Notes under the pieces: model-generated
Seen by the model: only the letters and a program-made list of their open reading frames with translations
Databases searched by the model: none
Told to the model about the DNA's origin: nothing
Program-made: the position numbers and the translations under genes
NCBI GenBank assembly: GCA_049515295.1
Contig: JBEKUF010000001.1
Location: 3,625 to 67,624 of the forward strand
Origin: Verrucomicrobiia bacterium
Lineage (GTDB): Bacteria; Verrucomicrobiota; Verrucomicrobiia; Palsa-1439
DNA length: 64,000 nt
Direction: 5' to 3'
Shown here: positions 41,657 to 63,871 of the stretch, in pieces
Layout of the letters: the number at the start of each line of letters is the position of its first letter
Numbering within the stretch: position 1 is the stretch's first letter

Positions 41657-41669
41657 GCACTCCCAATGT

Positions 41670-42932: not shown

Positions 42933-44031
42933 ATTCGACGTGATCGTGGTCGGTGGCGGGCCGGCCGGCGCGGCGGCGGCCGCGGGTTGTGCGCAACGGG
43001 GATTGCGCGTCGCGCTGTTCGAGCACGCCCGGTTTCCCCGCCATAAGGTCTGTGGTGATGTTCTCAATCCGAATTGCTGGCCGATCTTCGAACGACTCGG
43101 CGTGGCGCGGAGAATCCAGCAGTTGCCACATCACGCGATTGAGGGCGCCTGTTTCACCACAACAGGCCGTCACACTCTCAGTGTCCCTCTGCCGCACACG
43201 ACGGTAGCCATCCGCCGCAGTCTACTGGACGCGGCGTTGCTCGATCACGCCGGGTCGTGTGGAGTGCATGTCATGGAAGGCGAAACGGTCCACGACGTCC
43301 TGACCAACGGACGCGTGCGAACCAGCCACGGGGAATACGTGGCCCGAAATGCCATTATCGGTGCTGACGGACGGCATTCGGTGGTTGCACGCAAAGCCGG
43401 TCTGGCCCGTTTCCGGCGCCGAGGCAACGAACATGTGGCGTTCCAATCGCATTTCCGGGCACCGACGACGCTGGATCACCGCGTGCAATTACACCTGTAC
43501 CGGGGCGGCTACTGCGGTCTGGTGCGCGTGGACACGGAGCGCGCCAATCTTTGCATCGTGACCGGCCCATGGGCTGCCCAATTCCACCGTGACTGCGAAG
43601 CGCTCTTTGCGCACACCGTCTGGCAGAACCCCCATTTCCGTGAGTTGGGAATTGCTCCCGAACCACTCGAATCTCTGCGAATCGCTCATCCACTCCAGGC
43701 ACCGGCCTGCCGTGCAACCGGACACGGGGTCTTCCTTGCCGGCGACGCGCTACGGGTGATGGAACCCTTCACGGGTCAGGGGATCTTCTTGGCATTGCGA
43801 ACAGGAGAGCTCGTAGCGGAAGCCATCAGTGATCATTCTCACAGCGAGCGTCTGTATGCGACCGCGGTGGCGAGACTATACCGGCAACGTGGCCGCACCA
43901 ACACATGCCTGCGTCACGCGATGTACCGAGAGCGGGCCGCGCGCGCCATCATCCCGCTCGTGCAACACGCGCCCCAACTGGCACGCTGGCTTGCTGACAA
44001 CGTTCTTGGCGGCGATACGGGATTTCGGTAG
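42925..44031 (+). CDS. FAD-dependent oxidoreductase (geranylgeranyl-reductase/monooxygenase family)
   Basis: N-terminal DVIVVGGGPAGAAAA (GxGxxG), GD motif VFLAGDALRVMEPFTGQGI. Overlaps the ketosynthase by 8 nt. Confidence 0.7.
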   Translation: MSEFDVIVVGGGPAGAAAAAGCAQRGLRVALFEHARFPRHKVCGDVLNPNCWPIFERLGVARRIQQLPHHAIEGACFTTTGRHTLSVPLPHTTVAIRRSLLDAALLDHAGSCGVHVMEGETVHDVLTNGRVRTSHGEYVARNAIIGADGRHSVVARKAGLARFRRRGNEHVAFQSHFRAPTTLDHRVQLHLYRGGYCGLVRVDTERANLCIVTGPWAAQFHRDCEALFAHTVWQNPHFRELGIAPEPLESLRIAHPLQAPACRATGHGVFLAGDALRVMEPFTGQGIFLALRTGELVAEAISDHSHSERLYATAVARLYRQRGRTNTCLRHAMYRERAARAIIPLVQHAPQLARWLADNVLGGDTGFR

Positions 44032-48484: not shown

Positions 48485-51400
48485 CTACTTCGCCAACGCC
48501 GTTATTCGCACCGTGTCTTGCTGCGCTGTGTCGCTGACCGATGTGAATGTCAATGTGAAGGTCGCCTGGGTCCCCTTCTTCACGAGGGTCTTGTCCGCGA
48601 ACACTTCCGCTCGAATCATCGTCGAATCCCCCGTGACCGCCCCCGTTTCCATCGCAGCGGTTTCATAGGTTCCCGCCTGGACCGCAGTTGTTATATCCAT
48701 GCTTTCGGACGGGTTCGCGCCAATGTAGTAATTCACCGTCCAGCCCGAGCCCCCGCTGACTTGCGTACTCTGCACTGTGAACTGGTCGGGCCCTGAACCG
48801 TCGTTCTCCACAGCCACATAGTACCTCACGCCATGTCTGCCCTTCTCAATAGCCTTCTGAATAGCAGTGGGCGTCTGCAGATTGATATTTTGAACAATTT
48901 CCTGTCCGACGCCGGTCGTGTTGATGACGCCAAAGCCCACGAACTTCTTCAAATTACTAAACGACTTGCTAATCGCGGCATCCGGCTGACTGAGCGCTCC
49001 CATGCCGCTCAGGGACACCAGTTGGGGCGGCAGAATATTGTTGCTGCTGATAATGGACAAAGTGGCCGACCGCAGCCCTCCAGCCGTGGGAGCAAACTTC
49101 AGACTAACCACGCAGGTGGCGCCGCTTGAAATCGTCGTGCATGGCGTGGAAACAACAAGGAAATCACCCGTATTTCCCGCCGTGGTGGCAATGTTGCTGA
49201 TCACCAGCGGAGCGGTTCCGCAATTCGTGATCGTCACGCTCTGCACCGATCCGGTGACATTCACGGCGACACTGCCAAAGTCTATCGAACTGCTGCTGAG
49301 GCAGATGGCGGGCGCAGGCGCGACGCCGACGCCCTGCAGTGTCACCGTGGTCGGACTGCCCGCCGCGTCATCCGCGATGACAAGATTCGCGTGAAAAGCC
49401 CCTGCGACCGTTGGAGCAAACGCCACGTTCATCGTGCAAGTGCCCTCAACAGAAATGGGCGAGTTCGTACAAAGCGTCGCCACTGAGAAATTCGCCGACC
49501 CCGCTCCGCTGATCGTCACACCGGAAACGGTCAGCGGGATCGAACCGCAATTCGTGAGGGTAACGCTCTGCACGCTGCCGGTTGTCCCGATCACTTGGTT
49601 GGAGAAGGTAATCGACGTGCCGGTACTCAGGCACACCAGTGGAGCCGGTGCCGTCGCGTAGCCGGTCAAGGGGATGCTGCGCGGACTGCCGGTCTGGTTG
49701 TCCGTAAACACCAAATTCGCCACCAACGTCCCCACATCGTTGGTCACCGGTGAAAATGCCACAGTCACGAAGCAATCGGCCCCCGGACCCACGCGTCCGC
49801 CCGTACAGCCGTCATTAACAACCGTGAAGTCAGCCGCGTTCGACCCAGTGATCGACACGCTTTGGATGCTTGCCCCGACAGTCGTACCGTTCATATAGGT
49901 GACGACCTGTTGGGTGCTGACGGTGCCGGCAACCTGGCTGCCGAACGTCAAACTCGTGGGAGAAATCGTGATCGGCACCGTGCCTGGTGGCACGTTCACG
50001 TTGAGCACCATGGTCCCGCCGTCGCCGTCGTTTTGCGGCTCGACCACGATATAATAATCGTTTGACCCATCCGCCGTGAAGTTGACCTGGGCCGGCACGC
50101 TATTGGTGGATACGACCTCCGTCAGCGCCCCACAGTCGCCACGCACATTGAGCGCCTCCGGAAGCACCTTCACTTCCCAGACTGACAATAGCGGGGGCCC
50201 GCCGGAAAACGAACTGCCAAGCGTGCTAATGGTGAACACGGCACCGGGAGTCGGCAATGCAATCTTGAAGAATTCGTCGGCACCACCACGCCCCGCCGTG
50301 GGACTGGGCTGCACGTTTCGGTAGACCGCCTTCGTGAGATTGTTCGTGAACGCAAACGGGAATTGCGTGACGGGCATGGCGGTCTGGCAGGCGTTGTTGG
50401 TCGCCAGATTCGGAACGTCGGACAGCGTATTGGTCGCCGCGTTGTAAATGACCAGGGCAAAATCCTGATTGAGGGTGTTGGACCCGCCCGGCGTCGGCTC
50501 GCCCACATTCGGCACGCCCTGGCCCGCAATATTCGCGGCGCGCACGATGACCTGGAACGGGGCACCGGACGTCACTCCGGGAATGCCGTTGAGCAGTGTG
50601 GACGGATTCAAGAACACACTCTGCAGGTTGTTGATGGTGTCGATTCGGGAATTGGCTGTCGACACGTTCTCGAAAAACTGGTTGCCATTGTAGATGGCGG
50701 CATTCGAGCCGGCTCCGAGGGTCACCTGCAAATTAAGGTCGTTGACGAGTTGATTGCTGGCCGAAGCCGCCGGGTTGCCGGGTGGGTCGAGCCACACCAG
50801 CGTCACGCGGAACGGTAAGCCGTTGCTGGCGATCCGGCCGGTGACTTCGTAAGACTGCCCCGACTGGCTGAAGTACGTCTGCTGCGGCGCGGGATTCGTG
50901 GCGATGAGGGGCGTGTCAATCGCTCGCGGGGAACTCTCATCCCGAATCGCCCGAGGCACCCCGTCAAACATCGTGGCCAAATCCAGTTCGCCCATGCCCT
51001 GGGCAATGGAGGGCAGGGTGTCCAGTGTTCCGGGATACTGAGGACTTTGAATCGGCATATATCGGGCTGCGTTGCACAGGTAGGCCTTGGCCATGGCCGG
51101 GCTGGGCTGCAGCAATGCGCTGCCGAGTTCGTTCGTCAGTCGATGCTGGAAATACCACCACAGAAGCTGGATCGCCCCGGAAACCTCCGGTGCCGCATAA
51201 CTGCTGCCGGAATCGCAGTCGTACTCCCCGCCTATGGGACTTGGAAAACTGTCGGGAAACGACGCACTAGTATTGGTGAAACAAGCGTCAAAGAGCTTGG
51301 GCGGACTACAGTAAAGATTCGTCTCCGAACAGGAAAACACCGCCCCGCCGCCAAGAACCCCATTAGGGTCCTCGTTTATTACAGGTATGATTCCAAGCAC

Positions 51401-53533
51401 GGGATCGATTGCCACCGCCAGCAATGACTTTGCCGCCCAAACCGAGGTGGCCGGCGCCACTATCTCGGGCTTGATCCGCCCCTCCAACGTTGGCCCGAAC
51501 TCTGAAAGGTCATACATCTCCAGCGAGTCAGTCGCTTGATCGTCACAGGCGCTGCCATCCAGGCGCACGCTCTGGGAAGAACAAACAGTGATGACGTTCT
51601 TCGCGGTGCCCGGAGAGGTAATTCGGATGTCTCCGATCCCGCCGGTGCCCGGTATCACGCCGACATCGCTGCGAATCGAGAGGCCCGCAAACACGATGAT
51701 AAACTCCTGATTCAAGGGGAATGGAGTGGGAACATTGTTCGAATCTCCCACCAGCAATGCATCGCGAACGCCCGTGTCATAGATTTGAGCGTCAAGATCA
51801 TACCTGCCGCCGTTGTCGCCGGTGGAACTCATTTCTTCGCCCCAGCTATCGTTCTGAATACGCGCCCCGAACGTATACGCATGGAAGAAGAGCGTCGGAT
51901 AGAAACCCTCCATGCACGGCAGAGTGGGTTGAGGATTGGGCAGCAGACGCGCATGGGGCGGCGTGCCAGTGGTGTCCGCCGCCTGGTGCCAGATGCGCGA
52001 GCTGCCGATCAAGCCGAACGGGGAAACGCCAAGCCCCAGTTGGAACCCGCTCGGATCCTGGTAGACGAAGCTAACCACCTGCGTGACAATCACCTCTGTC
52101 AGGAGATCCACTGTGAAAAACGGGATTCCAGGACCTGAGCAGTTATAAGTCTCATTTGTGGTGAGCTCACACGGACTCGTTGGGAAAGTAATGGTGATGG
52201 ATCCGCCGCCGGCACTCAGACACAGCCCGTTGTAACCGAACGTCTGCGTTACGATCGTCGAATAAATGGACAACTGATCAAGAACGTTCGTCCGTTGGTC
52301 GAATCCGACAATTACGGAAGCCACCCGTGTGCCGTGGTCGTAAAAATCTTCCGTCCCGATGAAATTGAGGCTGAGTGGCGAGCATCCCGAATCTACCGTG
52401 GAACCGTCGAAGTAACCATTCTGGCCGGGCTCCATATAGGCCACGCGACCGCGCAACGAGGGCTGCACCACGGGGTCGCCTACGTCAAGACCGGTGTCCG
52501 CGACGTCGACAATCGGGTAGTTGGTTGGTTCCAGAAAAGATGGCAATCCACCACCGACCGTGTTGGTCAGGAAATCGATGTAGTTGGTGAACAGGGCCGT
52601 TACGCCGCCCAGGTAATTCGTGAAGAACCTGGCGCCCCCGGTCGAATTGGTCGGCCCGAAGCCGGGTTGGCTGGAGGTCTGCTCGGCGAGAAGGAGGTCC
52701 TGGACTTCATCCAGCAAAATCTTTCGCTCCACGCTCTCAATCCACAGTACGCCTTCCAGCCGGGCAATGCGGGGAATGTCCGAAAACGGCACGGTCATTC
52801 GCGCGACCTTTCTGTCGGCGGCATGGTAGCCGGATTGTATCAGCCCAAACTTCTTGAGCGCAGCCATGGTTTGCTCCGCCGCCGATCCTCCCGCCATCGC
52901 GATCTGTACGTCGACCAACGACTGGCCATTCTCCTTGATGGCATTCAACAGTCCCCGCCCGATCTTGTAGTACGGGTGGTAGGAACCGATCCACTGAATT
53001 GGGCTGTCGGCGCCCTGCCCGCTGCGCAGTTCGCTCTCCGCCACCTCGTCGACCAGAACCAGATAAGCGTTATTCGGTACATACGACACGACTTGCGCCC
53101 CCTTGGACGTGATCAACCGCAGCCATTCCGGGGTGATGGGGCCACGAAATTGCACCAGCCGTAAGCGCTCGCCCTTGCCCTCCGCTTGCCGATACTGCGG
53201 CGGAACCGGGGGCTCACCAACGCTGGTGTCAAAGGATGCAGAGCCCAGCTCGATGCGATTGAACCGGTTATTCACTGCGGCCCGCGCGCCGTACAGGTGC
53301 GTCAACTCGTCTACTTGCGCATCCGTCGCTTCCACCAACCAGTAGGAACCGTAATTACGAACCCGGGTGAATCCCCGCTGTCGCAACTGGTCAAAGGTCT
53401 CGTCGCCAGTGGGGTAAATGATCACCTTGTTGTTGCTGGGCGGTAACGTGGGCGTAGCGTGGCTGTGCACCCCCATGAAAATAAGGCCCGCCAAAACAAC
53501 CAGTACGCACCACCTGCTTACGGAGAATTTCAT
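48485..53533 (-). CDS. giant secreted subtilase (S8 peptidase) with more than 10 C-terminal Ig-like/choice-of-anchor-type repeats (1682 aa)
   Basis: Signal peptide. D (…VADTGLDVGD…), H (…DHGTRVASV…) and S (…GSSYAAPEVSGA…) triad of the S8 family. The C-terminal half is about 100-aa repeats of …(T)NCG…PL.VS…FS…C…I..G.C.(V)..F.PT..G…A.L.I. Confidence 0.8.
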   Translation of the reverse strand: MKFSVSRWCVLVVLAGLIFMGVHSHATPTLPPSNNKVIIYPTGDETFDQLRQRGFTRVRNYGSYWLVEATDAQVDELTHLYGARAAVNNRFNRIELGSASFDTSVGEPPVPPQYRQAEGKGERLRLVQFRGPITPEWLRLITSKGAQVVSYVPNNAYLVLVDEVAESELRSGQGADSPIQWIGSYHPYYKIGRGLLNAIKENGQSLVDVQIAMAGGSAAEQTMAALKKFGLIQSGYHAADRKVARMTVPFSDIPRIARLEGVLWIESVERKILLDEVQDLLLAEQTSSQPGFGPTNSTGGARFFTNYLGGVTALFTNYIDFLTNTVGGGLPSFLEPTNYPIVDVADTGLDVGDPVVQPSLRGRVAYMEPGQNGYFDGSTVDSGCSPLSLNFIGTEDFYDHGTRVASVIVGFDQRTNVLDQLSIYSTIVTQTFGYNGLCLSAGGGSITITFPTSPCELTTNETYNCSGPGIPFFTVDLLTEVIVTQVVSFVYQDPSGFQLGLGVSPFGLIGSSRIWHQAADTTGTPPHARLLPNPQPTLPCMEGFYPTLFFHAYTFGARIQNDSWGEEMSSTGDNGGRYDLDAQIYDTGVRDALLVGDSNNVPTPFPLNQEFIIVFAGLSIRSDVGVIPGTGGIGDIRITSPGTAKNVITVCSSQSVRLDGSACDDQATDSLEMYDLSEFGPTLEGRIKPEIVAPATSVWAAKSLLAVAIDPVLGIIPVINEDPNGVLGGGAVFSCSETNLYCSPPKLFDACFTNTSASFPDSFPSPIGGEYDCDSGSSYAAPEVSGAIQLLWWYFQHRLTNELGSALLQPSPAMAKAYLCNAARYMPIQSPQYPGTLDTLPSIAQGMGELDLATMFDGVPRAIRDESSPRAIDTPLIATNPAPQQTYFSQSGQSYEVTGRIASNGLPFRVTLVWLDPPGNPAASASNQLVNDLNLQVTLGAGSNAAIYNGNQFFENVSTANSRIDTINNLQSVFLNPSTLLNGIPGVTSGAPFQVIVRAANIAGQGVPNVGEPTPGGSNTLNQDFALVIYNAATNTLSDVPNLATNNACQTAMPVTQFPFAFTNNLTKAVYRNVQPSPTAGRGGADEFFKIALPTPGAVFTISTLGSSFSGGPPLLSVWEVKVLPEALNVRGDCGALTEVVSTNSVPAQVNFTADGSNDYYIVVEPQNDGDGGTMVLNVNVPPGTVPITISPTSLTFGSQVAGTVSTQQVVTYMNGTTVGASIQSVSITGSNAADFTVVNDGCTGGRVGPGADCFVTVAFSPVTNDVGTLVANLVFTDNQTGSPRSIPLTGYATAPAPLVCLSTGTSITFSNQVIGTTGSVQSVTLTNCGSIPLTVSGVTISGAGSANFSVATLCTNSPISVEGTCTMNVAFAPTVAGAFHANLVIADDAAGSPTTVTLQGVGVAPAPAICLSSSSIDFGSVAVNVTGSVQSVTITNCGTAPLVISNIATTAGNTGDFLVVSTPCTTISSGATCVVSLKFAPTAGGLRSATLSIISSNNILPPQLVSLSGMGALSQPDAAISKSFSNLKKFVGFGVINTTGVGQEIVQNINLQTPTAIQKAIEKGRHGVRYYVAVENDGSGPDQFTVQSTQVSGGSGWTVNYYIGANPSESMDITTAVQAGTYETAAMETGAVTGDSTMIRAEVFADKTLVKKGTQATFTLTFTSVSDTAQQDTVRITALAK

Positions 53534-54083: not shown

Positions 54084-55235
54084 TTACCGCGCGCCTTCCA
54101 ACACCGATGTGATGACGCGCGCCGTGGCGTCCCAACTGAACTTCGCGGCGTGCCTGCGCCCGCCCTCACCCAATTGCTGTCGCAACACGGAATCAGCCAG
54201 CAGTCGCCGAAACGCCTCCGCCAGCGCCTCGATGTCACCCTCGGCCACCAGCAATCCCGTCTCCCCGTCCACCACCGCCTCCCCCACGCCGCCGCTGCGA
54301 TAACCGACAACCGGTTTCCCATGAAAGCCGGCCTCAAGGTAGCTGATCCCAAAGCCCTCCACGCTCCTCTTCAACGAGCGGCTTGTCATGGCGCAGATGT
54401 CACACTGGTGATACGTCATGGCGACCGTGTCCGGATTGATCTGCCCCAGATGCTCGAAACCAATCCCCGCCTCCCGACACACCGCCTCGACCTTGCGCAA
54501 GTACAACGCGTCGCCAACGCCCCCGATTTGGTAAATGATTCGCGACCGGAGCTCGTTCGGCAACCGCGCCAGCGCCTGCGCGGTGTCGAGCTGTCCCTTG
54601 CGTGGATGCACCCGGGCCAGGGTCAGGACGCGGACCCGTCCATCCGCGGCCACTTTCCCCGGGCACGGCCGCATCGCCGCCGTACTGCACGCGCAGGGAG
54701 CGATCACAATCCGCCGCGCCAACAACGAAAGGAAACTGTGTTGAATCAGCGATTGCGAGTACCTCGACACGGTGAATACGCATTCGACCCGCGGGAAAAA
54801 GCGCCGCGCCCAAAACCTCCACAACCCGCTGTTTTGGAATCGCAGCACCTCCGAGCCATGAAGCACCGAAAGGATGCGCCGGCATTTCACCCGACCCAAC
54901 GGCACAAGAACCATGAACGCCAGATGCGCCCCGACGCTCGTCAGCACCACCGTCGCCTCCTCCAATTGCTTCCGCCGGGACGACAGTTCAATGGCGAACC
55001 GGACCATGTCCCCGAACCGCAAACTCCCGCCTCCGCGCAGCCGCACCACCGGGAATCGGTCCCCATCGACCGCTCCCAACCCTCCATAATCCGGCGCCCA
55101 GACCTCGACCCCCTGCCCCGCCCGGTGCAGGGCCGCCGCCAGTTCCTCGCTATACGTGGCCACACCGCCACGAAACGGGGTGAATTCGTGCGTGCAGATC
55201 ACGATCTTCGGTTTGGGCTGTGGTGTGTGTGTCAT
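54084..55235 (-). CDS. GT4-family glycosyltransferase
   Basis: GT-B fold with the C-terminal E-x7-E-type region (…ISYLEAGFHGKPVVGYRSGGVGEAVVDGETGLLV…). Confidence 0.75.
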   Translation of the reverse strand: MTHTPQPKPKIVICTHEFTPFRGGVATYSEELAAALHRAGQGVEVWAPDYGGLGAVDGDRFPVVRLRGGGSLRFGDMVRFAIELSSRRKQLEEATVVLTSVGAHLAFMVLVPLGRVKCRRILSVLHGSEVLRFQNSGLWRFWARRFFPRVECVFTVSRYSQSLIQHSFLSLLARRIVIAPCACSTAAMRPCPGKVAADGRVRVLTLARVHPRKGQLDTAQALARLPNELRSRIIYQIGGVGDALYLRKVEAVCREAGIGFEHLGQINPDTVAMTYHQCDICAMTSRSLKRSVEGFGISYLEAGFHGKPVVGYRSGGVGEAVVDGETGLLVAEGDIEALAEAFRRLLADSVLRQQLGEGGRRHAAKFSWDATARVITSVLEGAR

Positions 55236-55370
55236 AGATCGACAACGATCATCTCACCAGACCCGTGCCGCCCTGCCAACCGAAAAATCTGGGCCGGCTT
55301 CCAGACCAACATCATCAGCGGCTTGACCAGCAATTGGCCAAGCCACTATTACGTCGGCTCCGGCAAGTGT
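55022..55370. repeat. segmental duplication, copy A (GT4 5' end, spacer, PEP-CTERM-gene 5' fragment)
   Basis: 55022-55085 is about 88% identical to 57586-57648. 55296-55335 matches 57841-57880 (38/40, encoding FQTNIISG(L/V)TSNW). Spacing is similar in both copies (about 200 nt). Confidence 0.6.
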
Positions 55371-55947
55371 TTTTGTGAAGGAAGCCCCGGCAAGCGGTAA
55401 CGGCGTCGCGGCAACGCAACCGTAGGTCGATTGGCGGACGCGCCGATCACAGCGGTTGCAACTTGCCCGCCGCAGACCCAGCGGATGTTCCGACCAGTAG
55501 GAAGAGCCGACAGCGGCGAACGCATTTGGGTCCGCCCGAGTCAGAAGAATCTCCCGCAACAAAAATGGACCCGGCAAAACCGTTGCAGACTGAACGCCAT
55601 CCCGCGGCGCAATCCTCCGACTTTGGTCATGGGGTCTGGCCGCGGTAGCTCGGGAAAACCAGCAATGCGTATAATCAACCAGTTCTTTGACGACTTGCCG
55701 GTTCCGGGTAAAAGTTGCCATTGAAAAAGTAATCGAATAAGCCGAACTTCGGTTGCACACGATGGTTTCGACCACAGTCTTATTAGGCCTATGAGCAGGG
55801 AACCTGAGATCATTGCGAAATCCAGTTTGGCTCCGAAACGGAATAACACCACTGGCAATTCGACAATCTCTGCTGATCTGCGAAGTCGGGAACTGGAAAG
55901 TGGTAAGACCAGCATTGGGTACTTGTTGGGCATGGAGGCAACACAAA

Positions 55948-57465
55948 ATGAGCGCTACGAAAACAAACGCTGACTGGGGCCGGAACGGCCCACAACTATC
56001 CCAAGCACGGCCGGCTGATGGACCGGGTCTACCGAAACGTTCTGCCGCCGCTCAAGGGCGATCATCGCTTCGACGCCAGTCGCTCGGTCAAGGAGACCGC
56101 TCGCGAAGTGCGGGACGCGGTCATGCACTTCCATTGCTTTTGCTCCTTCTGTGTGGCTGTGCCGCAACTCCGCCGACGCCCGCACCGACCGGTTCCGGCG
56201 TTTCGTGGCTGATGTGTTCCGGCGCCGGTGGCTTCTACAGCAACGGCGTGTGCTCGGCGGTGCCAACGACCCAAATCATCAACCGTGTCTCCCTGTGGCA
56301 ACCCGTATGGATGCACTTCGGTATTCCTATCCGTATCTGCTGCCCTAGTCCGGGAACTTGCGACTGGTCCTACGTGGACGCCGTCATCGCCAGCAACCGG
56401 ATCTGGCAGGCCCCGTACGAGACGAAGGTCAAGGCCTACATGGACTGGGGGTCCTACGTGACGCTGAACTACCGCAACGGCATCGCTATCTACAGCACCA
56501 ACACGACCTACGACATCATGCCACTGTGGTTCTACAATCTTGCCCGGAGACCCCAAGATCTGTCCGGCGGCGCCATGGCCGGCGCTGAACTCTTCGACGC
56601 GCAGGTGCCGGCTGCTTCCCGGATCGTCAGCAACCTGCTCGTCCACGAAGCCGGGAGGATTTCCGTTCTGGGACTCACGTGGGAACCAGATTGGGGAACC
56701 AACTACGCCATTCCTCTTGCGATGGTTGCCAGTTCCGTAGTGAACGTGGCGAGGTCCACCGGAGTTTCCCTGGCCATGGGTGAATTTGGCCAACCAGTCT
56801 ATGGAGTGTTCACTAGTTACTGCGGCTACTACAACGGCTCAAACTGGTATGACGCCATCGTCTGGCACGACGATCATTGGATTTCGTGGCCTCCGGATCG
56901 CCGGGCGGGCCCCAACAGTCCCCCCAACCTGCGGTATGACCAACTGTTCGACCGACTGGCATCGCTGGGCAAAATGATGATGCAGGACTACATGGAGTTT
57001 TTCTACTGCTGTGACCCAACGGAGGACGCCCTCTACGCCGACCGCATCGTCAAGGGCATCTTGATGATGCGAAAATCCGGTGTGGCAGTTATTGCGCCCA
57101 ACGCCTATCCCTACGCCTCGACTTGCGCCCCCGACAATGTACTCAGCAACAACTTCGGCGGGGCCTACACGGGATACGTGAACAACGCCATGACGGCGTC
57201 CGGCGTGGCCATTTCCAATCTGCTTTCGCTAATCGGCAACAGCGCCTGCTCGACCTCGTCAGTGCACTACCCATACTACTGCTATCAATTTGGGTCGAAT
57301 ACCTTTGCCTGGATCGCGGAGGGGTATCCATCGGAAGCCATGACGCTTTCGGGCTGGGCGTCCGGACCGACCTACGTCCGAGATGCCACTGCGGCCCCAA
57401 CCAATGCGCTGGGCAACAGCCCGATTGTGCTTTCCGGTACAGGCGAAATAAATACAGGACGGTGA
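55948..57465 (+). CDS. hypothetical secreted lipoprotein (Cys/Tyr/Trp-rich, about 505 aa)
   Basis: Lipobox LLLLLLCGCAATP after an unusually long basic N-region. No recognisable catalytic motif. Upstream 550 nt is low GC. Confidence 0.5.
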   Translation: MSATKTNADWGRNGPQLSQARPADGPGLPKRSAAAQGRSSLRRQSLGQGDRSRSAGRGHALPLLLLLLCGCAATPPTPAPTGSGVSWLMCSGAGGFYSNGVCSAVPTTQIINRVSLWQPVWMHFGIPIRICCPSPGTCDWSYVDAVIASNRIWQAPYETKVKAYMDWGSYVTLNYRNGIAIYSTNTTYDIMPLWFYNLARRPQDLSGGAMAGAELFDAQVPAASRIVSNLLVHEAGRISVLGLTWEPDWGTNYAIPLAMVASSVVNVARSTGVSLAMGEFGQPVYGVFTSYCGYYNGSNWYDAIVWHDDHWISWPPDRRAGPNSPPNLRYDQLFDRLASLGKMMMQDYMEFFYCCDPTEDALYADRIVKGILMMRKSGVAVIAPNAYPYASTCAPDNVLSNNFGGAYTGYVNNAMTASGVAISNLLSLIGNSACSTSSVHYPYYCYQFGSNTFAWIAEGYPSEAMTLSGWASGPTYVRDATAAPTNALGNSPIVLSGTGEINTGR

Positions 57466-57585
57466 TGGACAGCGGAAGCCCCAGCCAACCAGCGCTCAAA
57501 AATAATTACCGACGAGCGAGCCAGGGAAGACGGTCACATCTGGGCGGAGTGATTGTTCAACCGCCCAATCCACTGGACAGACACA

Positions 57586-57920
57586 ACTCCCGCCCCGCGC
57601 AGCCGCACCACCGGGAATCCGAACCCATCCGCCGCTCCCAAATTGTGAATGTTTTCACTTGGAATCCTGTCGGGACGGGAGCATACTCTTTTCCTGCCGG
57701 CTAGGGTAACTGTCACCACGCAGGTCTGGACACCACCAGACAAGAGGAACGCATGAAGGGATTGCGACGCCGCTATCTGATCGTGGGAATTCTCATTGGG
57801 GCCGTAGTCGGCCCCTGCCCCTCCAAGGCCCAGTACACCGCCGACTTCCAAACCAACATCATCAGCGGCGTGACCAGCAATTGGGACGACTTTTACGCCC
57901 TCGGAGCCACTAATTCTGGC
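57586..57920. repeat. segmental duplication, copy B (GT4 fragment remnant plus intact PEP-CTERM gene start)
   Basis: See copy A. Here the GT4 part is a non-coding remnant (minus-strand frame reads …FPVVRLRG… as in the real GT4), while the PEP-CTERM gene is intact. Confidence 0.6.
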
Positions 57921-59573
57921 GATGTGTTGCTCGTAGAGAACGGCGGCGTGCTCGTCGACGGCTTCGCCTCTATTGGGTCTCAAGCCGGAGCAAATAACAA
58001 TGTCGCAATTATCTCCGATCCAGGATCCATCTGGTCGAACGGCAGCTTTCTGAATATCGGAGAGTCGGGTTCGGGCAACGAGTTGTTCATCACTGACGGA
58101 GCTGCCGTTAATGACCAGTATGGGTACGTGGGCTCCAATGCTAGCAGCAGCAACAACACAGCGGTGGTCGACGGTAGTCGCTCAGTCTGGAATAACACGC
58201 AGGAATTCACTTTCGGCTGGTTCGGGTCGGGAAACAGATTGATTGTCACCAACGGCGGCGCGATCTATGGCTGGGATTGCTACTTGGGCGGGGGAAACAC
58301 GAGCGTCGGCAACACCGTTTCAGTAAGCGGGAGCGGGTCGACCGTGGGTGCAAGCAGTAACCTTTATATTGGCTATGTAAGCGCTGGTAATCGAGTCACC
58401 ATCAGTGACGGCGGCTTGGTCTTCGACGCAAACGGTTACGTAGGCACTTCCAGCAACAACTTCGTCGTGGTCACGGGCAGCGGCTCGGTGTGGAGCAACC
58501 GCGCCGATCTTACTATCGGGACATCTGAGTATATGCCCGGCAATCAACTAACCATCACCAACGGCGGAGCCGTCTATGACAACAACGGGTCTGTAGACGG
58601 GAGCCCGTACCCGACCAGCACCGTGGTGTCGGTCAGCGGCAATGGCGCCCGTTGGTGCAATTCCGGCAATCTCTCCGTCGGCGGCGGCGAGGGGCTGGGG
58701 AATTGTGTTACGATTGGCGAAGGCGGTTCCGTAGTGGCCAGCAACTCGTATGTCTCCCCTGTAACGGGATCGACTTCATACAATGGGATCACCGTCTGCG
58801 GCGGTGCCTTGTTTGTGACCAACGCTCTTCATACTGGCACGTATCAGAACACAGGCCTGCTCACTCTCAACAGCGGAACCCTCACCGTCGATAGCCTGAT
58901 CTCCACTCAATCATCACACATCGTCTTCAGTGGCGGTGTATTAAACGCTAAGAGTTCGGCCATCAGCACGCTTGCCGTCGGCAACGGCACGAATGTGGCA
59001 ATCTTCAATCTTGCCCCCGGTGGGTCAGGGATCCACTGGTTTACCTACCAGGGTTTGAGTATCTCCAGCAACGCCATGCTGACGGGCGGCGGCACGATCA
59101 TTGGCCGAACCACCGTCCAAGCGGGCGGCACGCTCGTCCCCGGTGGTGGTGCAGGCAGCATCGCCTTCAGCAGCAATCTGACGCTTGCGGCCGGATCAAC
59201 TCTCGCCATCACCATCGACGGTCCCGGAGCAGGTCAATACAGCCAGATCACCGGCTTGGGTACGATCAGCGTCAGCAACTGTGTCCTGAGCGTATCGCTC
59301 GGCTATACGCCATCACCGGGCGACTCGTTCACGATCATCAGCAATCTCACTTCGATGGCGGTGCTCGGGACCTTCGTGGATACAGCGGGCGCCGCGCTGC
59401 CCAACGGCGCCGACTTCGTCGTGGACAACACAACATTCCAGATTGATTACAGCGCTAACTGCGATGGCATGGATGTAGCCCTAACCGCGCTGATTCCCGA
59501 GCCGTCCTCGCTTTTGCTGACCGCCCTCGGCGCGGTCGCCCTGTGCGCGCTTCTGAGGCGTCGACGGCATTGA
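57753..59573 (+). CDS. PEP-CTERM protein with autotransporter-associated beta-strand repeats
   Basis: Signal peptide. Conserved N-terminus QYTADFQTNIISGVTSNWDD. Repeated (V/I)TNGG(A/G)(I/V)Y… units. C-terminus IPEPSSLLLTALGAVALCALLRRRRH is a PEP-CTERM signal. Confidence 0.75.
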   Translation: MKGLRRRYLIVGILIGAVVGPCPSKAQYTADFQTNIISGVTSNWDDFYALGATNSGDVLLVENGGVLVDGFASIGSQAGANNNVAIISDPGSIWSNGSFLNIGESGSGNELFITDGAAVNDQYGYVGSNASSSNNTAVVDGSRSVWNNTQEFTFGWFGSGNRLIVTNGGAIYGWDCYLGGGNTSVGNTVSVSGSGSTVGASSNLYIGYVSAGNRVTISDGGLVFDANGYVGTSSNNFVVVTGSGSVWSNRADLTIGTSEYMPGNQLTITNGGAVYDNNGSVDGSPYPTSTVVSVSGNGARWCNSGNLSVGGGEGLGNCVTIGEGGSVVASNSYVSPVTGSTSYNGITVCGGALFVTNALHTGTYQNTGLLTLNSGTLTVDSLISTQSSHIVFSGGVLNAKSSAISTLAVGNGTNVAIFNLAPGGSGIHWFTYQGLSISSNAMLTGGGTIIGRTTVQAGGTLVPGGGAGSIAFSSNLTLAAGSTLAITIDGPGAGQYSQITGLGTISVSNCVLSVSLGYTPSPGDSFTIISNLTSMAVLGTFVDTAGAALPNGADFVVDNTTFQIDYSANCDGMDVALTALIPEPSSLLLTALGAVALCALLRRRRH

Positions 59574-59703
59574 CGACGGCTGCTCCCCGCAGCGTTTCGC
59601 GCCGCCTGATTCTCCGCCGACCGAAAAAATCGCTTTCTCTTTGGCCCCGGGTTTGGTATCAGTCCCCTCGCCAGGAAGGACCAGCACACGCGCGTCGCTT
59701 CAC

Positions 59704-60630
59704 ATGAATATAACGTTGACTGATACCGAAGTGGCCGACCTCAAAGACGGATTGCGCCGATGCAGTCCCAAAACCATCGAAGCCGCCGTTCGCTACCGCG
59801 AAACGGGCGACCCCAACACCATCCCAACCATCGTGTACGGGATTCTGGAGCGCTATCAGCCCTCCACCGCGCCCGTGAAACTCTCCGCGGCCGATGAAAA
59901 CGCCCGGCTCATCGAAGACCTCGGCCTCGATTCGCTGACCTTGCTCGAAATCGTGCTGTCGATTGAGGAGGTCCTCAAGTTGCACATTGAAAATGAGGAG
60001 CTTCGCGAAATCCGTACGATGGGGAACCTGAACAGGTTTCTCCACGCCAAGATTACCGGCGCCGCCACCGGGGCGCCGTCGAAGGTTTATTCGCGCGAAC
60101 AGATTGCGCTCGTGCTCCCGCAACAGCCGCCGTTCATGTTCCTTGACGAAGCGTCGCTGAACGCCGAGACACTCAAGGCCAGCTATACCGTCAAAGGCAA
60201 CGAGTTCTTCCTCGAAGGCCATTTCAAGGACGACCCCGTTTTCCCCGCCTCGATCGTCTTCGAAGCCCTGGGCCAGGCCGCGTGCCTGTGGGTGCTGGAG
60301 AAAGCACCGGCGCAGATCGGCAAGGAGATCAAGTCCAACCACGTCTATTTTGCGTCGATGGACGGCGCGCACTTTTACCAAAAGACCAGGCCGGGGGATA
60401 AACTCGAGTTCGAGTTGAAGCTGGCGCGGCTTCGCGAGCCGCTGGCCGTTTTCGAGGGAACAGTGACCTCGCAGGGGCGGCGTGTGGCCAAGATCGAACG
60501 TCTCGTGCTCGCGTTTGGCGAACAACTTCTTCCCGAAAACCTGTCGTCATCCGAATCGTCCGCGTCCGACGCCCCCGCGCCGACCCCCGTTCCGGTCACG
60601 CCCAACGGCCCGGACGGTGGCCGGTCCTGA
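59704..60630 (+). CDS. fusion of acyl carrier protein and FabZ-type 3-hydroxyacyl-ACP dehydratase (hot-dog)
   Basis: N-terminal 90 aa carry the ACP helix-II motif LIEDLGLDSLTLLEIVLSIEE (pantetheine Ser in DSL). C-terminal part carries …FLEGHFKDDPVFPASIVFEALGQAAC… (His/Glu FabZ signature) and ends in a Ser/Pro-rich tail. Confidence 0.7.
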   Translation: MNITLTDTEVADLKDGLRRCSPKTIEAAVRYRETGDPNTIPTIVYGILERYQPSTAPVKLSAADENARLIEDLGLDSLTLLEIVLSIEEVLKLHIENEELREIRTMGNLNRFLHAKITGAATGAPSKVYSREQIALVLPQQPPFMFLDEASLNAETLKASYTVKGNEFFLEGHFKDDPVFPASIVFEALGQAACLWVLEKAPAQIGKEIKSNHVYFASMDGAHFYQKTRPGDKLEFELKLARLREPLAVFEGTVTSQGRRVAKIERLVLAFGEQLLPENLSSSESSASDAPAPTPVPVTPNGPDGGRS

Positions 60631-60647
60631 ATTCGCATCGACCCAAC

Positions 60648-61925
60648 TTGTCAATGAAGCGCGTCGCCGTCACGGGCCTGGGGTTCATCACCAGCATTGG
60701 CAACAACCGTCAGCAGGTTGTCCGCAGCCTCCGGGAATGTATCACCGGCGTCGAGCCATTCGACGAGTTTGACGTTCCCGATGCGCCGGTAAAACTGGCT
60801 GGCACCGTCAAGGGATTTCACTTTCCCACGGCCTACTTCGAGGATTGGACGCTTCCACCCGACTACAAGCTCACCCGCGAGCAATTGCGACCGATGGCGC
60901 CGAATTCCTTGTACGCCTACGGGGCCATGCAACAGGCCATCGCCGAAGCCAGGCTGACGCCCGACGAGGTGTCCAACCCGCGCACCGGCGTCATGTGCGC
61001 CTCCGGCGGTTCCATGTGGCTCGCTTATGACAACCTGCACACGATGGTCACTCGCGGCGTCGCCCGATGCCACCCCATGGCCATCATCAACAGCATCCCC
61101 GGCTCCTTGTACATCAATCTGGTCACTTGCTACAAAATCAAGGGCGGGGCCCTGGGCTTTTCCAGCGCGTGTTCGTCCTCCGCCCACGCGCTCGGCACCG
61201 CCGCCGACCTTATCCGACTCGGTCGTCAGGATATCGTCTTTGTCGTCGGCGCCGAGGACTGCAACAAGTTCAGCATTCTTCCGTTTGCCGGCATCCGTGC
61301 ATTGAGCCTGCAGACCGACCCGGCCAAAACACCGTGCGCGTTCGATGTGAAGCGCGATGGTTTCGTCGGCACGGGCGGGGCCGCGGTTCTGGTGCTGGAA
61401 GAACTGGGGCGCGCCCAACGCCGCGGCGCCCCGATCGCCGCCGAGGTCCTGGGTTGGGGCCAGTCAGCCGACGGATACAACGTCCTCGCACCCGATCCCG
61501 AAGGCGACGGATTGCGGCGCGCCATGGAAGAAGCGCTGGGCGATGCCCATCTGGCGAAGGAGGAAGTCGATTACATCAACGCTCATGCGACATCGACCAC
61601 CGTGGGCGATGTCAGCGAATGCCGCGCCATCCGCGCCGTGTTCGGCAACGGCCGGACGCCTCACGTCAGCAGCACCAAGAGCCTGACCGGCCACGGCCTT
61701 TCCCTGGCGGGCGCGATGGAGGCCGCCTTCTGCGTGCTGGCGCTGCAGGTGGGTTTCACCCCGGTTTCCGCGCACATCACCCAGCTCGACCCGCAGTGCG
61801 CCATCGCGCCCATCGTCACGAAACCGGTCCCGGACAAACCTCGCATCGCCCTGAGCAACTCGAGCGGCTTCGGAGGCACCAATGTTTGCCTCGCGCTACG
61901 CCGATGGGACAATGGCGCCGAATGA
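60648..61925 (+). CDS. beta-ketoacyl-ACP synthase, FabB-like (KAS I family)
   Basis: Recalled E. coli FabB matches block by block: GLGFITSIGNNRQQVVRSLREC, Cys SSACSSSAH, GRQDIVFVVGAED, His-His (YINAHATST, LTGHGLSLAG), SNSSGFGGTNVCLAL. Confidence 0.8.
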   Translation: MSMKRVAVTGLGFITSIGNNRQQVVRSLRECITGVEPFDEFDVPDAPVKLAGTVKGFHFPTAYFEDWTLPPDYKLTREQLRPMAPNSLYAYGAMQQAIAEARLTPDEVSNPRTGVMCASGGSMWLAYDNLHTMVTRGVARCHPMAIINSIPGSLYINLVTCYKIKGGALGFSSACSSSAHALGTAADLIRLGRQDIVFVVGAEDCNKFSILPFAGIRALSLQTDPAKTPCAFDVKRDGFVGTGGAAVLVLEELGRAQRRGAPIAAEVLGWGQSADGYNVLAPDPEGDGLRRAMEEALGDAHLAKEEVDYINAHATSTTVGDVSECRAIRAVFGNGRTPHVSSTKSLTGHGLSLAGAMEAAFCVLALQVGFTPVSAHITQLDPQCAIAPIVTKPVPDKPRIALSNSSGFGGTNVCLALRRWDNGAE

Positions 61926-62733
61926 CACTCCGAAGGTCTTCCTGACCGGTGCCAGTTCCGGCATCGGGCTGGAAACGGCCAAATTGCTTGCCGCGCAGGG
62001 ATTCGAACTCTGGGGAACCTCCCGCGACCCGGCCCGTCTGCCCCAACTGCCGCGGTTCCATGGCGTGCCGATGGATCTGACTCAAACGGATTCAATCCGT
62101 CAAGGTTTCGCCGTCGCCTTGAAGGAAGCGGGCGCATTCGACGTGTTGATCAACAACGCTGGTGCCGGCGCGTTCGGGGCCATCGAAACCATGCCCGCAG
62201 AAATGGTGCGCGAACAGTTTCAGCTGCTGGTGGACGCGCCCTTGGAGTTGATCCGCCGGGCGCTTCCCGCCATGCGCCAGCGCGGTCGCGGCACAATCAT
62301 CAACGTCACGTCGCTCGCCGCGCAATTCCCCATTCCCTTCATGGCCCCATACAGCGCGGCGAAATCCGCCCTCAGCGCGTTTACGGCGGGATTGCGGGTG
62401 GAACTTTCCAACACGCCGATCCGTGTCGTCGAGATTCGCCCCGGCGACATCAACACCCCGTTTCACGATCGGACAAGGCGTGTCGAAGTCGCGAGCAACC
62501 CGGAAGAGGAACGCCGGATGAAATCAGCTTGGGAAACCCAGTTGCGAAATATGGCGGCATCGCCGCGGCCGGATCGGGTCGCGCGGGCCGTGCTGCGGGC
62601 GATTAGGACACCGAATCCGCCACCGGTTCTGGTCGTGGCAGGTTTATTCCAGGCGTGGCTGGCGCCTTGGGGCGCGCGGCTCTTGCCGCTTCGAGTACAG
62701 GAATTCGTTCTGCGGAAATACTATCGGCTCTAA
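61912..62733 (+). CDS. SDR-family oxidoreductase (possible ketoacyl reductase)
   Basis: TGASSGIGLETAK (TGxxxGxG) and catalytic YSAAK. Start overlaps the ketosynthase 3' end. Confidence 0.7.
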   Translation: MAPNDTPKVFLTGASSGIGLETAKLLAAQGFELWGTSRDPARLPQLPRFHGVPMDLTQTDSIRQGFAVALKEAGAFDVLINNAGAGAFGAIETMPAEMVREQFQLLVDAPLELIRRALPAMRQRGRGTIINVTSLAAQFPIPFMAPYSAAKSALSAFTAGLRVELSNTPIRVVEIRPGDINTPFHDRTRRVEVASNPEEERRMKSAWETQLRNMAASPRPDRVARAVLRAIRTPNPPPVLVVAGLFQAWLAPWGARLLPLRVQEFVLRKYYRL

Positions 62734-63871
62734 CGCCGAGGCCGGCGATCATCTTCACAATATCGCTCGGATGCAACGGCGGACAGGCCCGTTGCATCGC
62801 CCGACGAATCGCCGCCGGCAACTCGGGCCGCGTCCGCCACTCGGTGATAATTCCCGCCAACTCTTCGGGGCTGCGCACCAGTTGCGCCACGCCGTGGTCA
62901 CGACAGAATTTCACCGTGATACGCTCCTGGGGCATGATCCCGCCGAGACTGTTCAGCAATAATGGACAACAACTCACAATCGCTTCGCTGGTTGTACCCG
63001 TGCCCGGGCGGGCGACGATCGCCGACACCGAACGCATCAATTGGCCAACATTGGTGTTGTGCGGGAGCAACCGCACCCGCGCCGACGGGTTGGCCTTGGC
63101 CCACGCGGAAATCTCGCTCTCGGCAATTGGCGATTTGCCGCACAACAATACCACCTGTATATCCACTCCCTGCCGCCGCAACGCGTCGAGAAACCGCACG
63201 TGATTGTGGGCGCCCCGGCTCGATGCGCTCAACAGAAGAATGAATTCGCCGGGGTCGAGCCGCAGTTTCTCGTGTATGAAGGCCGCGCGCTCCGTTTCGT
63301 CCTCCGGCGGATCGTAGAACGATCGACGCAATAGAAAGCCGCCCAGCCGGGTCCGTTCGGCGGCCATCCCCCAGCGTACCGCTGCCTGGCAGGTCTCCGG
63401 AACCGCGCCGATAAACAGGTCCGCGGACGGATTGACCCAGTGTCGGCTGAACCCGTAGCCGCCGGACAATTCACCGCAGTACGTGACGCACTTCACACGA
63501 TCTTCGCCCAGCACCACGCGCGCGTATTCAAAAAAACCGTGGTTCAGCGAGTCATGCACGCTGATCAAGACATCGGGCTGAAGTTCTTCCAGGACCTTCC
63601 GGTACTTGGCCGCGCCCAGCGGTTTGCGGGTGCGGACAATCGGCACCACCTCCAAAAAGTTGAAATACACGTGATGCAGAAACGGGGCGGTGCGCTGGAT
63701 CCAGTTGTACAGCCAGACGCCGAATGCGTAAATGGGGTGCGATTTTTCGAGCGGACGATGGAGTTGCACCGAGAGATCAAGCGACGGCTCAGCCTGCGCC
63801 CATTCCTGGAACGCGCGCGCTCGCATGTTGTGGCCTCCCCCGGTACTCGATGTGAGTATCAGAACTCGCAT
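62603..63871 (-). CDS. GT28-family glycosyltransferase (MGDG synthase / UgtP-like diacylglycerol glycosyltransferase)
   Basis: N-terminal VLILTSSTGGGHN is the MGDG_synth signature. GT-B C-terminal domain. The 3' end overlaps the convergent SDR gene by about 130 nt. Confidence 0.65.
   Translation of the reverse strand: MRVLILTSSTGGGHNMRARAFQEWAQAEPSLDLSVQLHRPLEKSHPIYAFGVWLYNWIQRTAPFLHHVYFNFLEVVPIVRTRKPLGAAKYRKVLEELQPDVLISVHDSLNHGFFEYARVVLGEDRVKCVTYCGELSGGYGFSRHWVNPSADLFIGAVPETCQAAVRWGMAAERTRLGGFLLRRSFYDPPEDETERAAFIHEKLRLDPGEFILLLSASSRGAHNHVRFLDALRRQGVDIQVVLLCGKSPIAESEISAWAKANPSARVRLLPHNTNVGQLMRSVSAIVARPGTGTTSEAIVSCCPLLLNSLGGIMPQERITVKFCRDHGVAQLVRSPEELAGIITEWRTRPELPAAIRRAMQRACPPLHPSDIVKMIAGLGVRADSISAERIPVLEAARAARPKAPATPGINLPRPEPVADSVS

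Follow-up and report, generated by a model that had tools for sequence, protein, structure and literature searches.

The window analyzed here is a stretch of 64,000 nucleotides (nt) from a Verrucomicrobiia bacterium (NCBI GenBank assembly GCA_049515295.1, contig JBEKUF010000001.1, positions 3,625 to 67,624 of the forward strand). Close to its end lies a gene that encodes an acyl carrier protein (ACP) fused to a FabZ-type dehydratase (DH). This ACP-DH gene is followed by genes for a beta-ketoacyl synthase (KS), a short-chain dehydrogenase/reductase (SDR) and, on the opposite strand, a glycosyltransferase of the GT28 type. The best reading of ACP-DH, KS and SDR is that they form one operon and constitute the acyl-chain arm of an envelope-glycolipid cluster found across the Verrucomicrobiota. 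The other conserved members of that cluster are a serine palmitoyltransferase (SPT)-like alpha-oxoamine synthase, the GT28/UgtP-like glycosyltransferase and several glycosyltransferases of family GT4. The genes and domains of the cluster that lie within the window are as follows.

59704-60630, + strand: ACP-DH fusion gene, 308 amino acids (aa) from the ATG at 59704, single stop-free frame
59704-59820, + strand: N-terminal extension of the carrier, residues 1-39, two extra helices and an RRC motif with Cys20
59821-60057, + strand: ACP core, residues 40-118, phosphopantetheine-attachment Ser77 (codon 59932-59934)
60076-60519, + strand: hot-dog dehydratase domain of FabZ fold, residues 125-272, catalytic His173 (60220-60222) and Glu187 (60262-60264)
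60654-61925, + strand: beta-ketoacyl synthase of the elongating type, FabB-leaning, 423 aa, Pfam ketoacyl-synt N and C domains
61912 (or 61882)-62733, + strand: classical SDR reductase, Pfam adh_short E 1.4e-41
62603-63871, - strand: GT28/UgtP/MGDG-synthase-like lipid glycosyltransferase, 422 aa, weak Pfam matches to MGDG_synth and Glyco_tran_28_C
54084-55235, - strand: GT4 glycosyltransferase, the divergent partner of the cassette, Pfam Glycos_transf_1/Glyco_transf_4

An extended carrier fused to a FabZ-type dehydratase and its adjoining genes

The carrier-dehydratase fusion claimed in the initial annotation of this DNA was borne out by the reading frame. The fusion gene is enclosed by an open reading frame (ORF) that runs uninterrupted from 59641 to 60630 on the + strand, and Ser77, His173 and Glu187 are intact in the encoded protein; from the end of the dehydratase domain, a low-complexity tail extends to 60630. 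In Pfam the two parts were matched by PP-binding (residues 66-109, E 8.5e-5) and FabA-like (residues 139-264, E 3.4e-17), and in an alignment with 19 homologues of 65-86% identity, D76-S77-L78, H173 and E187 were found to be invariant. The AlphaFold2 model (mean pLDDT 79, pTM 0.51) places helices 7-16 and 22-34 first, followed by the four-helix ACP bundle, a linker and the hot-dog domain, the placement of the domains relative to one another being unreliable.

The carrier was deemed distinct from housekeeping AcpP, a protein of about 78 aa with Ser36 within a DSL motif. Here the DSL serine is Ser77, behind an extension of about 40 residues, and the NCBIfam ACP models gave 30-38 bits, all below their thresholds (best, 38 against a cut-off of 71). 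Within the extension, Cys20 (59761-59763, in an RRC/KRC motif) was invariant in the same 19 fused homologues, and 11 of 12 diverse extended ACPs that stand alone have it too. Such stand-alone proteins, of 110-190 aa and made up of the carrier and its extension, were found in many clusters at 50% identity. For two of these, P0208 and P0190, the genomic contexts were uninformative, as one contig is short and the other holds no cluster.

The dehydratase was assigned to the FabZ type on the basis of its fold and its His/Glu dyad. The top 50 Foldseek matches to the hot-dog domain were all FabZ, with TM 0.76-0.86 over the 50 and 0.81-0.86 for the best of them, and the solved structures closest to it by sequence were likewise all FabZ. 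The FabZ equivalog models of NCBIfam (NF000582/TIGR01750) gave 77 bits (cut-off 113) and 70 bits (cut-off 155), both sub-threshold, and the domain departs from FabZ also in not being a stand-alone protein of about 150 aa. The FabA models gave 19-22 bits against cut-offs of 124-238, and the residue corresponding to the FabA active site is Glu187.

Homologues of the fusion numbered 497 at E up to 0.001, and the best 120 cover 86-100% of the protein at 65-100% identity, in many independent assemblies; among these 120, those with an organism name are metagenome-assembled genomes (MAGs) of Verrucomicrobiae/Verrucomicrobiia. The genome scan placed the fusion in Verrucomicrobiia, Chthoniobacteraceae, Puniceicoccaceae, Opitutales and Ca. 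Moanabacter, plus one MAG labeled Blastochloridaceae; no cultured carrier of the fusion was identified, all genome matches with both domains being uncultured MAGs. The possibility that the fusion is an assembly or annotation artefact was ruled out, as the dehydratase lies in the frame of the carrier, without a stop, in 98 of 113 related loci, and the fusion is thus genuine. In two loci it is split, and in 10 there is no dehydratase behind the carrier; a split form that keeps the order was found with an ACP of 117 aa, a DH of 150 aa and then the KS. Since these split and dehydratase-less forms exist, the fusion is one state of a conserved ACP-(DH)-KS module. A 152-aa ORF after the SDR in one locus (L063) was considered as a detached dehydratase and rejected for want of similarity. 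A literature search for an ACP-dehydratase fusion in Verrucomicrobia returned nothing relevant.

The KS gene was taken to start at the ATG at 60654, 23 nt behind the fusion gene, as it is called on a JGI contig that is identical to the window (L001). The spacing of 17 nt given in the initial annotation holds for the alternative TTG at 60648, a form of the protein for which an exact database look-up returned no record. The triad Cys173/His311/His347 is present, as in the elongating Cys-His-His enzymes to which FabB belongs. The initial annotation had matched this protein to FabB block for block; the leaning towards FabB was confirmed and the wording was found to be overstated. Profile and PDB scores, which served as a proxy for a tree in placing the KS between FabB and FabF, gave 345 bits for FabB (NF005935, cut-off 630) and 352 bits for FabF (cut-off 494), and the best 17 PDB matches were all FabB. 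Identity was 42.5% to the solved FabB 7pps and 34.8% to a FabF-type KS encoded elsewhere in the window. Compared with FabB, the protein has about 13 additional residues, inserted in the region 34-69, and at residues about 402-410 it reads SNSSGFGG where FabB reads SNSFGFGG, a change of Phe to Ser; these differences may reshape the acyl pocket or the surface on which the carrier docks. The KS adjoins the carrier gene in 25 of the 31 carrier clusters with enough flank.

The resemblance to FabB raises the possibility of a FabA/FabB-like module for anaerobic unsaturated fatty acids, in which the dehydratase would isomerize the enoyl intermediate and the KS would elongate it. This would fit a KS that is nearer to solved FabB than to FabF structures and a dehydratase gene directly ahead of the KS gene, as in fabA-fabB operons. 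The dehydratase that partners this KS is of the FabZ type, with Glu187 in place of Asp, much higher scores for FabZ models (70-77 bits) than for FabA models (19-22 bits) and structural matches that are all FabZ; the KS thus falls short of FabB both in its score and in its partner. Such a module would also leave unaccounted for the fusion to a private carrier, the glycosyltransferase and SPT context described below and the occurrence of dehydratase-less variants. It was therefore judged very unlikely, and the anaerobic connotation that the initial annotation attached to the KS was not upheld.

The SDR gene overlaps the end of the KS gene by 14 nt (start 61912) or 44 nt (start 61882), and the overlap and the two motifs previously described were found, namely TGASSGIG (TGxxxGxG) and YSAAK (YxxxK), along with NNAG. 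In NCBIfam its score was 165 bits for a PRK06179-type model, with no FabG model in the top 25. Once the generic SDR subfamilies are set aside, the nearest named model is KdsR, the bacterial 3-ketodihydrosphingosine reductase, at 155 bits over the full length (cut-off 400).

The MGDG-synthase/UgtP-like GT28 gene noted earlier as convergent with the SDR is present at 62603-63871. Its protein has the N-terminal motif ILTSSTGGGH and scored 20.4 for Pfam MGDG_synth (cut-off 25) and 20.8 for Glyco_tran_28_C (cut-off 22), both weak, and 79 bits over the full length for the NCBIfam diglucosyl-diacylglycerol synthase PRK13609 (cut-off 500). Its start in the initial annotation (MRVLILTSSTGGGH) looks the better one, the JGI call at 63826 looking too short. 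The 3' ends of the SDR and GT28-like genes share 131 nt (62603-62733), an overlap kept in the close relatives L002, L005, L008 and L011. The GT28-like orthologue is on the same strand behind the SDR or KS in a carrier clade of about 50% identity and in the more distant loci L145 and L146, which points to an inversion in the lineage of the window. A scan for promoters and terminators from 59.3 to 64 kb gave nothing beyond the shuffled expectation.

The conserved neighborhood and its SPT-like gene

The proteins of the window were mapped onto 29 genome loci and 80 metagenome loci, and de novo clustering of ORFs agreed with the result. The recurrent order is a divergent GT4, ACP-DH, KS, SDR, GT28-like gene, one to three GT4 and the SPT-like gene, often with another GT4 last. 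The cluster was seen in close relatives, in the large carrier clade of about 50% identity and in L146, whose fusion protein shows 43% identity, and the set of GT4, ACP-DH, KS, SDR, GT28-like gene and GT4s recurs at identities down to 37-50%.

The initial annotation had observed that the locus runs off the window end, which is correct: the SPT-like partner sits past that end, outside what was then in view. The identical contig L001 runs 5 kb further and encodes, after the GT28-like gene, a glycosyltransferase of the MJ1255/VC2487 family, a GT4, a 269-aa protein without family match and, on the - strand, a 400-aa alpha-oxoamine synthase, 7.8 kb downstream of the start of the fusion gene. The NCBIfam model that matched this enzyme best was serine palmitoyltransferase at 407 bits (cut-off 640), with BioF, also sub-threshold, at 355. 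Its best solved relative was the SPT of Sphingobacterium multivorum (331 bits, 42% identity over 372 residues), with which the GSFSKS motif of the pyridoxal phosphate (PLP) lysine aligns; among other solved enzymes, the best BioF/KBL-type gave 259 bits and the Sphingomonas SPT 248 bits.

The linkage was counted over 45 non-redundant loci, those that remained after collapse at 95% nucleotide identity and whose sequence continues for at least 8.5 kb on the downstream side of the carrier gene. In 18 of these an SPT-like orthologue lies 1.7-9.2 kb from the carrier gene, and across the 18 the carrier domains are 46-99% identical and gene order and orientation vary. By our own estimate, and not by a computed test, an enzyme that is normally encoded once per genome would seldom lie within 10 kb by chance. 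The SPT-like gene follows directly behind the SDR in L019 and directly behind the KS in L082 and L084, is two genes from the KS in L061 and is adjacent to ACP-DH in L145. The linkage of a specialized carrier gene to spt, one of the marks of the bacterial sphingolipid pathway, has its counterpart here in the linkage to the SPT-like gene. In L025, from an Opitutales MAG, the order is ACP-DH, KS, transposase, GT4, GT9, SPT-like gene, two GT4 and SDR. The dehydratase-less variants retain the extended ACP, the KS, the SPT-like gene and an epimerase-family keto-reductase; in L061 and L062 the carrier is followed by the KS, the keto-reductase, the SPT-like gene and a homologue of Kdo (3-deoxy-D-manno-oct-2-ulosonic acid) transferase.

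Several further genes at these loci were recorded. The transposase in L025 is of the DDE type and is inserted at 12396-13988, between the KS and the first GT4. A 409-aa aminotransferase near L063 was considered as an SPT-like enzyme and rejected, being of the DapL type. Conserved cluster proteins of 269, 339 and 449 aa had no family match.

The extension of the locus beyond the window also bears on an aryl-polyene or flexirubin-like type II polyketide system, a lead for which the initial annotation had looked to the downstream sequence. A set of KS, ketoreductase-like SDR and DH that lacks an enoyl reductase would be apt for making polyenes, and the dehydratase domain has weak precomputed ApeI-like Pfam matches; our own Pfam scan of the dehydratase gave FabA-like alone. 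In the 5 kb past the window end there is no second KS or chain length factor (CLF), acyltransferase, LolA or MMPL, the genes found in their place being those for glycosyltransferases, one protein without family match and the alpha-oxoamine synthase. Across L001 and the related loci there is no CLF or second KS, ApeP partner, adenylating enzyme, LolA/MMPL exporter or acyltransferase, and a polyene system was judged extremely improbable.

The GT4 orthologue lies directly upstream of and divergent from ACP-DH in L002, L005, L008, L146 and most of L068-L144. In the window a lineage-specific insertion of about 4.4 kb (55300-59600) separates the two genes. It contains ORFs of 64 aa and of about 417 aa, the latter without family match, as well as the gene for a 606-aa protein that has T5SS/PEP-CTERM-associated repeats and carries the PEP-CTERM tag for sorting. 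The adjacency to a PEP-CTERM surface protein, to which the initial annotation drew attention, is therefore incidental, its gene being part of the insertion and outside the cassette. The upstream genes for QueG, shikimate kinase, a threonine-aldolase-like protein and PurD were judged to be an inherited neighborhood outside the system. In 12 loci of the clade of about 50% identity, a YbgC/4HBT-type thioesterase gene is directly downstream of and co-oriented with the divergent GT4 (L078, 8199-8666; FAM 7), and it is found also in L146 (8142-8573); it could be a member of the system or could reflect inherited synteny with QueG. In L020, L022, L023 and L028 an MsbA-like ABC exporter of about 620 aa is encoded directly upstream of ACP-DH, with no adjacent KS, an arrangement of the module that differs from the one above; the copy in L020 is cut by the contig end, and L028 is binned as 'Blastochloridaceae'.

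Elsewhere in the window, the gene at 48485-53533 (- strand) encodes a secreted protein of 1682 aa from the subtilisin family (S8), in which Ig-like/ASH-type domains are repeated, and is syntenic upstream of the cassette in many close relatives. A second lipid-like set lies at 40284-44031 (+ strand), preceded by a gene for an outer-membrane efflux protein (38455-39873), and comprises an S-adenosylmethionine methyltransferase (PRK06202-like), an SRPBCC/Polyketide_cyc2 protein, a FabF-type KS and a flavoprotein of the geranylgeranyl-reductase family; it looks like a set for specialized lipid synthesis. Its KS scored 482 bits on TIGR03150 and was above the PRK07314 cut-off.

A minimal operon in endosymbionts of about 160 kb

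The most distant fused homologue followed, at 37% identity, is on the contig L145 (JGI 3300075146, Ga0645784_00058, 162,744 bp). The 20.8-kb stretch that was fetched has 28.6% GC, and its in-frame TGA codons are read as Trp, as in code 4; having been made with code 11, the public gene calls are broken into fragments. With code 4, one strand encodes without a break three GT4, the 449-aa protein, the SPT-like enzyme, ACP-DH, the KS and the GT28-like protein, and the glycolipid operon occupies about 9 kb. The size of the contig and its gene order match the Ca. Pinguicoccus/Organicella type of Euplotes endosymbiont. In the published gene table of Ca. Organicella extenuata (Williams et al. 2021, PMC8204192, Supplementary Table 3), four consecutive genes are listed as 'GT28 (UgtP homolog)' (Org646_00018), 'FabB' (Org646_00019), 'ACP + FabZ' of 266 aa (Org646_00020) and 'BioF homolog' with the function 'unknown' (Org646_00021), and their orthologues in Ca. 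Pinguicoccus supinus are Ping_00179-182 (PMC8204192 Supplementary Table 3; PMC7679464). Organicella has in addition a separate FabG-AcpP-FabF set, Org646_00029-31 (PMC8204192). Both papers report that fatty acid synthesis and several glycosyltransferases are kept and that phospholipid acyltransferases are absent (PMC8204192; PMC7679464); the Organicella paper reports in addition that the Kdo2-lipid A genes are missing, and it includes FabZ and 'FabB' in what it calls a 'functionally complete FASII' (PMC8204192). Since neither phospholipid acyltransferase nor Kdo2-lipid A genes remain, the 'BioF homolog' is the only consumer of acyl-ACP found among the listed genes of the endosymbionts. The initial annotation had raised the possibility that the fusion is already characterized as an ordinary part of type II fatty acid synthesis (FAS II); it had been tabulated as 'ACP + FabZ', which is an annotation and not a characterization. 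In this published record the fusion was seen and booked as FAS II and was not connected to the neighboring PLP enzyme.

These tables also support an ordinary FAS II, in which the fused ACP-FabZ and the FabB-like KS would be the bulk FabZ and KAS I of the phylum and the glycolipid genes would be neighbors only because fatty acids feed the envelope. The fusion is listed as 'ACP + FabZ' for both endosymbionts and booked under FASII in the Organicella paper, a search of the Organicella table for FabZ gave the fused gene only, and the catalytic residues, the FabZ fold and the Cys-His-His triad of the KS are all intact. Set against this are scores far under the FabZ, FabB, FabF and ACP equivalog cut-offs and the conserved 40-residue extension of the carrier, which is absent in AcpP. 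With 163 coding sequences and a separate FabG-AcpP-FabF set, Organicella is unlikely to have kept two carriers and two KS without distinct roles. Furthermore, the extended ACP, the KS and the SPT-like gene stay together even where the dehydratase is missing, the linkage to SPT-like and glycosyltransferase genes survives rearrangements, and the window carries its own FabF-type KS (482 bits). An ordinary FAS II was therefore considered unlikely but still a serious rival, and the proposal of the initial annotation, a dedicated cassette for a specialized glycolipid and not canonical FAS II, was sustained by the four proteins that score below cut-off, by the recurrence of the gene set and by the other FabF-type KS in the window.

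The loss of lipid A genes bears also on an arm of the AcpXL type, which would make an unusual (very long or hydroxylated) fatty acid for transfer by an acyltransferase to lipid A or another glycolipid, the SPT-like gene being separate. In the Rhizobiales cluster acpXL-fabZXL-fabF1XL-fabF2XL-lpxXL, lipid A receives a special acyl chain that FabZ and KS make with a private ACP (PMC5613085). The order of ACP, FabZ-type dehydratase and KS is the same here, and both would be arms for an outer-membrane glycolipid that use the housekeeping FabG, FabI and FabD; genes for MsbA-like, GT9 heptosyltransferase or Kdo-transferase proteins near some loci, and the YbgC-type thioesterase co-oriented with the upstream GT4 in 12 loci, would fit as well. 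Unlike the AcpXL cluster, with its separate ACP and dehydratase genes, two KS and LpxXL, the cassette has a fusion, one KS and an alpha-oxoamine synthase as the candidate consumer. No gene of the LpxXL/LpxL type (Lip_A_acyltrans) was found among the scanned neighbors, the only recurring enzyme that uses acyl thioesters is the SPT-like one, and the cassette is kept in Organicella and Pinguicoccus despite their loss of lipid A genes. On this balance an AcpXL-type arm was rated quite improbable.

Proposed route to a glycosylated envelope lipid

From gene integrity, folds, catalytic residues, conservation and gene linkage, all of them shown by the analysis, we infer a chemistry in which a private acyl-carrier arm would feed an SPT-like enzyme for a glycosylated envelope lipid. 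The chemistry being wholly deduced, we regard the chances of this claim as about even. Most likely the product would be an envelope lipid of the sphingolipid type that bears sugars, and not ordinary fatty acids.

In the proposed sequence of steps, the KS would condense an acyl chain made by housekeeping FAS II with malonate on the N-extended carrier and so place the chain on a private carrier, in one or possibly more rounds. Either the SDR or FabG would reduce the beta-keto group, the fused dehydratase would act in cis, and a housekeeping enoyl reductase would complete the cycle. The SPT-like enzyme would then join the carrier-bound chain to serine, giving a 3-keto long-chain base, which would be reduced here by the KdsR-like SDR and, in dehydratase-less lineages, by the epimerase-family reductase. 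Lastly, the GT28-like and GT4 enzymes would glycosylate the base to a glycosphingolipid-type lipid.

The closest precedent for a carrier dedicated to SPT is that of Caulobacter and other 'Rhodobacteria', in which Spt prefers an acyl chain on the specialized carrier AcpR, charged by the acyl-ACP synthetase AasR (Padilla-Gomez et al. 2022, PMC9386255). As in that system, the carrier of the cassette is distinct from AcpP, its gene is near an SPT-like gene and a separate putative keto-reductase is encoded, and the dehydratase-less variant (ACP, KS, epimerase-family reductase, SPT-like gene) resembles the acpR-spt-cerR layout of Caulobacter. Unlike AcpR, the carrier of the cassette is extended by 40 residues at its N terminus and in most cases continues into a dehydratase, and the SPT-like protein is nearer to the Bacteroidota type. 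The cassette further differs in having many glycosyltransferases, no bacterial ceramide synthase (bCerS) that was found and a FabB-like KS instead of AasR. No AMP-binding enzyme was found in any annotated locus, and the KS is proposed to stand in for AasR. A second precedent is SgaAB of Pseudomonas fluorescens MYb115, in which an iterative type I polyketide synthase and an alpha-oxoamine synthase give sphinganines (bioRxiv 10.1101/2024.02.06.579051). There, as proposed here, KS, DH, ketoreductase and ACP elongate an acyl primer on their own carrier and a stand-alone PLP enzyme adds serine. Unlike SgaA, which is one multidomain protein that includes an acyltransferase and an enoyl reductase, the cassette is dissociated (type II), with only ACP and DH fused and no acyltransferase or enoyl reductase encoded in the cluster. 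The set in Organicella and Pinguicoccus has the same four genes and the same fusion in the same phylum; it differs in that the window has an SDR, and there GT28 was booked under lipopolysaccharide (LPS), and neither a mutual link nor a role in sphingolipids was proposed. With E. coli FabZ and FabB the cassette shares the hot-dog fold with its His/Glu dyad and the thiolase-fold KS with its Cys-His-His triad; unlike them, its dehydratase is covalently joined to a carrier and its genomic context is one of glycolipid and not fab genes.

Several observations weigh against a sphingolipid-type product. The SPT-like protein is sub-threshold for the NCBI SPT model (407 against 640 bits), and no SPT-like gene was present in the fetched DNA of 27 of the 45 long-flank loci. 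For the bCerS N-acyltransferase, no acyltransferase domain was found in the scanned cluster genes, its presence elsewhere in the genome being possible; with no N-acyltransferase in any cluster, a ceramide could not be completed from the genes seen. The role of the SDR is ambiguous, since it could act on the 3-keto long-chain base or serve the arm as its beta-ketoacyl reductase, and it is missing from the minimal operon of L145. The GT9, Kdo-transferase and MsbA-like neighbors in some loci indicate that the sugars could belong to LPS. Finally, the fused entry alone was returned when the Organicella gene table was searched for FabZ, and as the sole FabZ returned it must there at least also serve bulk elongation.

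A more far-reaching proposal is that the Verrucomicrobiota have a complete and previously unrecognized route to glycosylated sphingoid lipids in which acyl chains are committed by the KS, in place of an acyl-ACP synthetase, to a private carrier, mostly one with a fused dehydratase, that feeds the SPT-like enzyme, and that in Ca. Organicella and Pinguicoccus the product may be the sole membrane lipid that can still be made. A further possibility within it is that the chain leaves at the enoyl stage in the fused lineages, which would give a 4-unsaturated (sphingosine-type) base with no desaturase. We advance this proposal tentatively and hold it to be possible rather than probable.

Spt-like genes have been counted in 22 Verrucomicrobiota MAGs, and beyond that published count our search of the literature found nothing on the cluster, its SPT-like link or verrucomicrobial glycosphingolipids. 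The gene set itself was already in public tables, uninterpreted, and what is new is its tie to the SPT-like gene together with the sphingolipid reading. To our knowledge, detailed understanding of bacterial sphingolipid synthesis is limited to Proteobacteria and Bacteroidota. If the proposal is true, it would add a third sphingolipid architecture, in a phylum that is plentiful in soil, peat and fresh water, and one in which the carrier is charged by a condensation hand-off and not by ATP-dependent ligation. Verrucomicrobiota genomes would then carry systematic annotation errors (BioF homologue, FabZ, FabB), and lipid geochemists who sample peat and lakes would have a candidate source for glycosylated long-chain bases. 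The proposal would also explain why endosymbionts of about 160 kb that lack phospholipid and lipid A genes have kept FAS II and eight glycosyltransferases, and so would give a testable answer to the puzzle posed in the two papers on the Euplotes endosymbionts.

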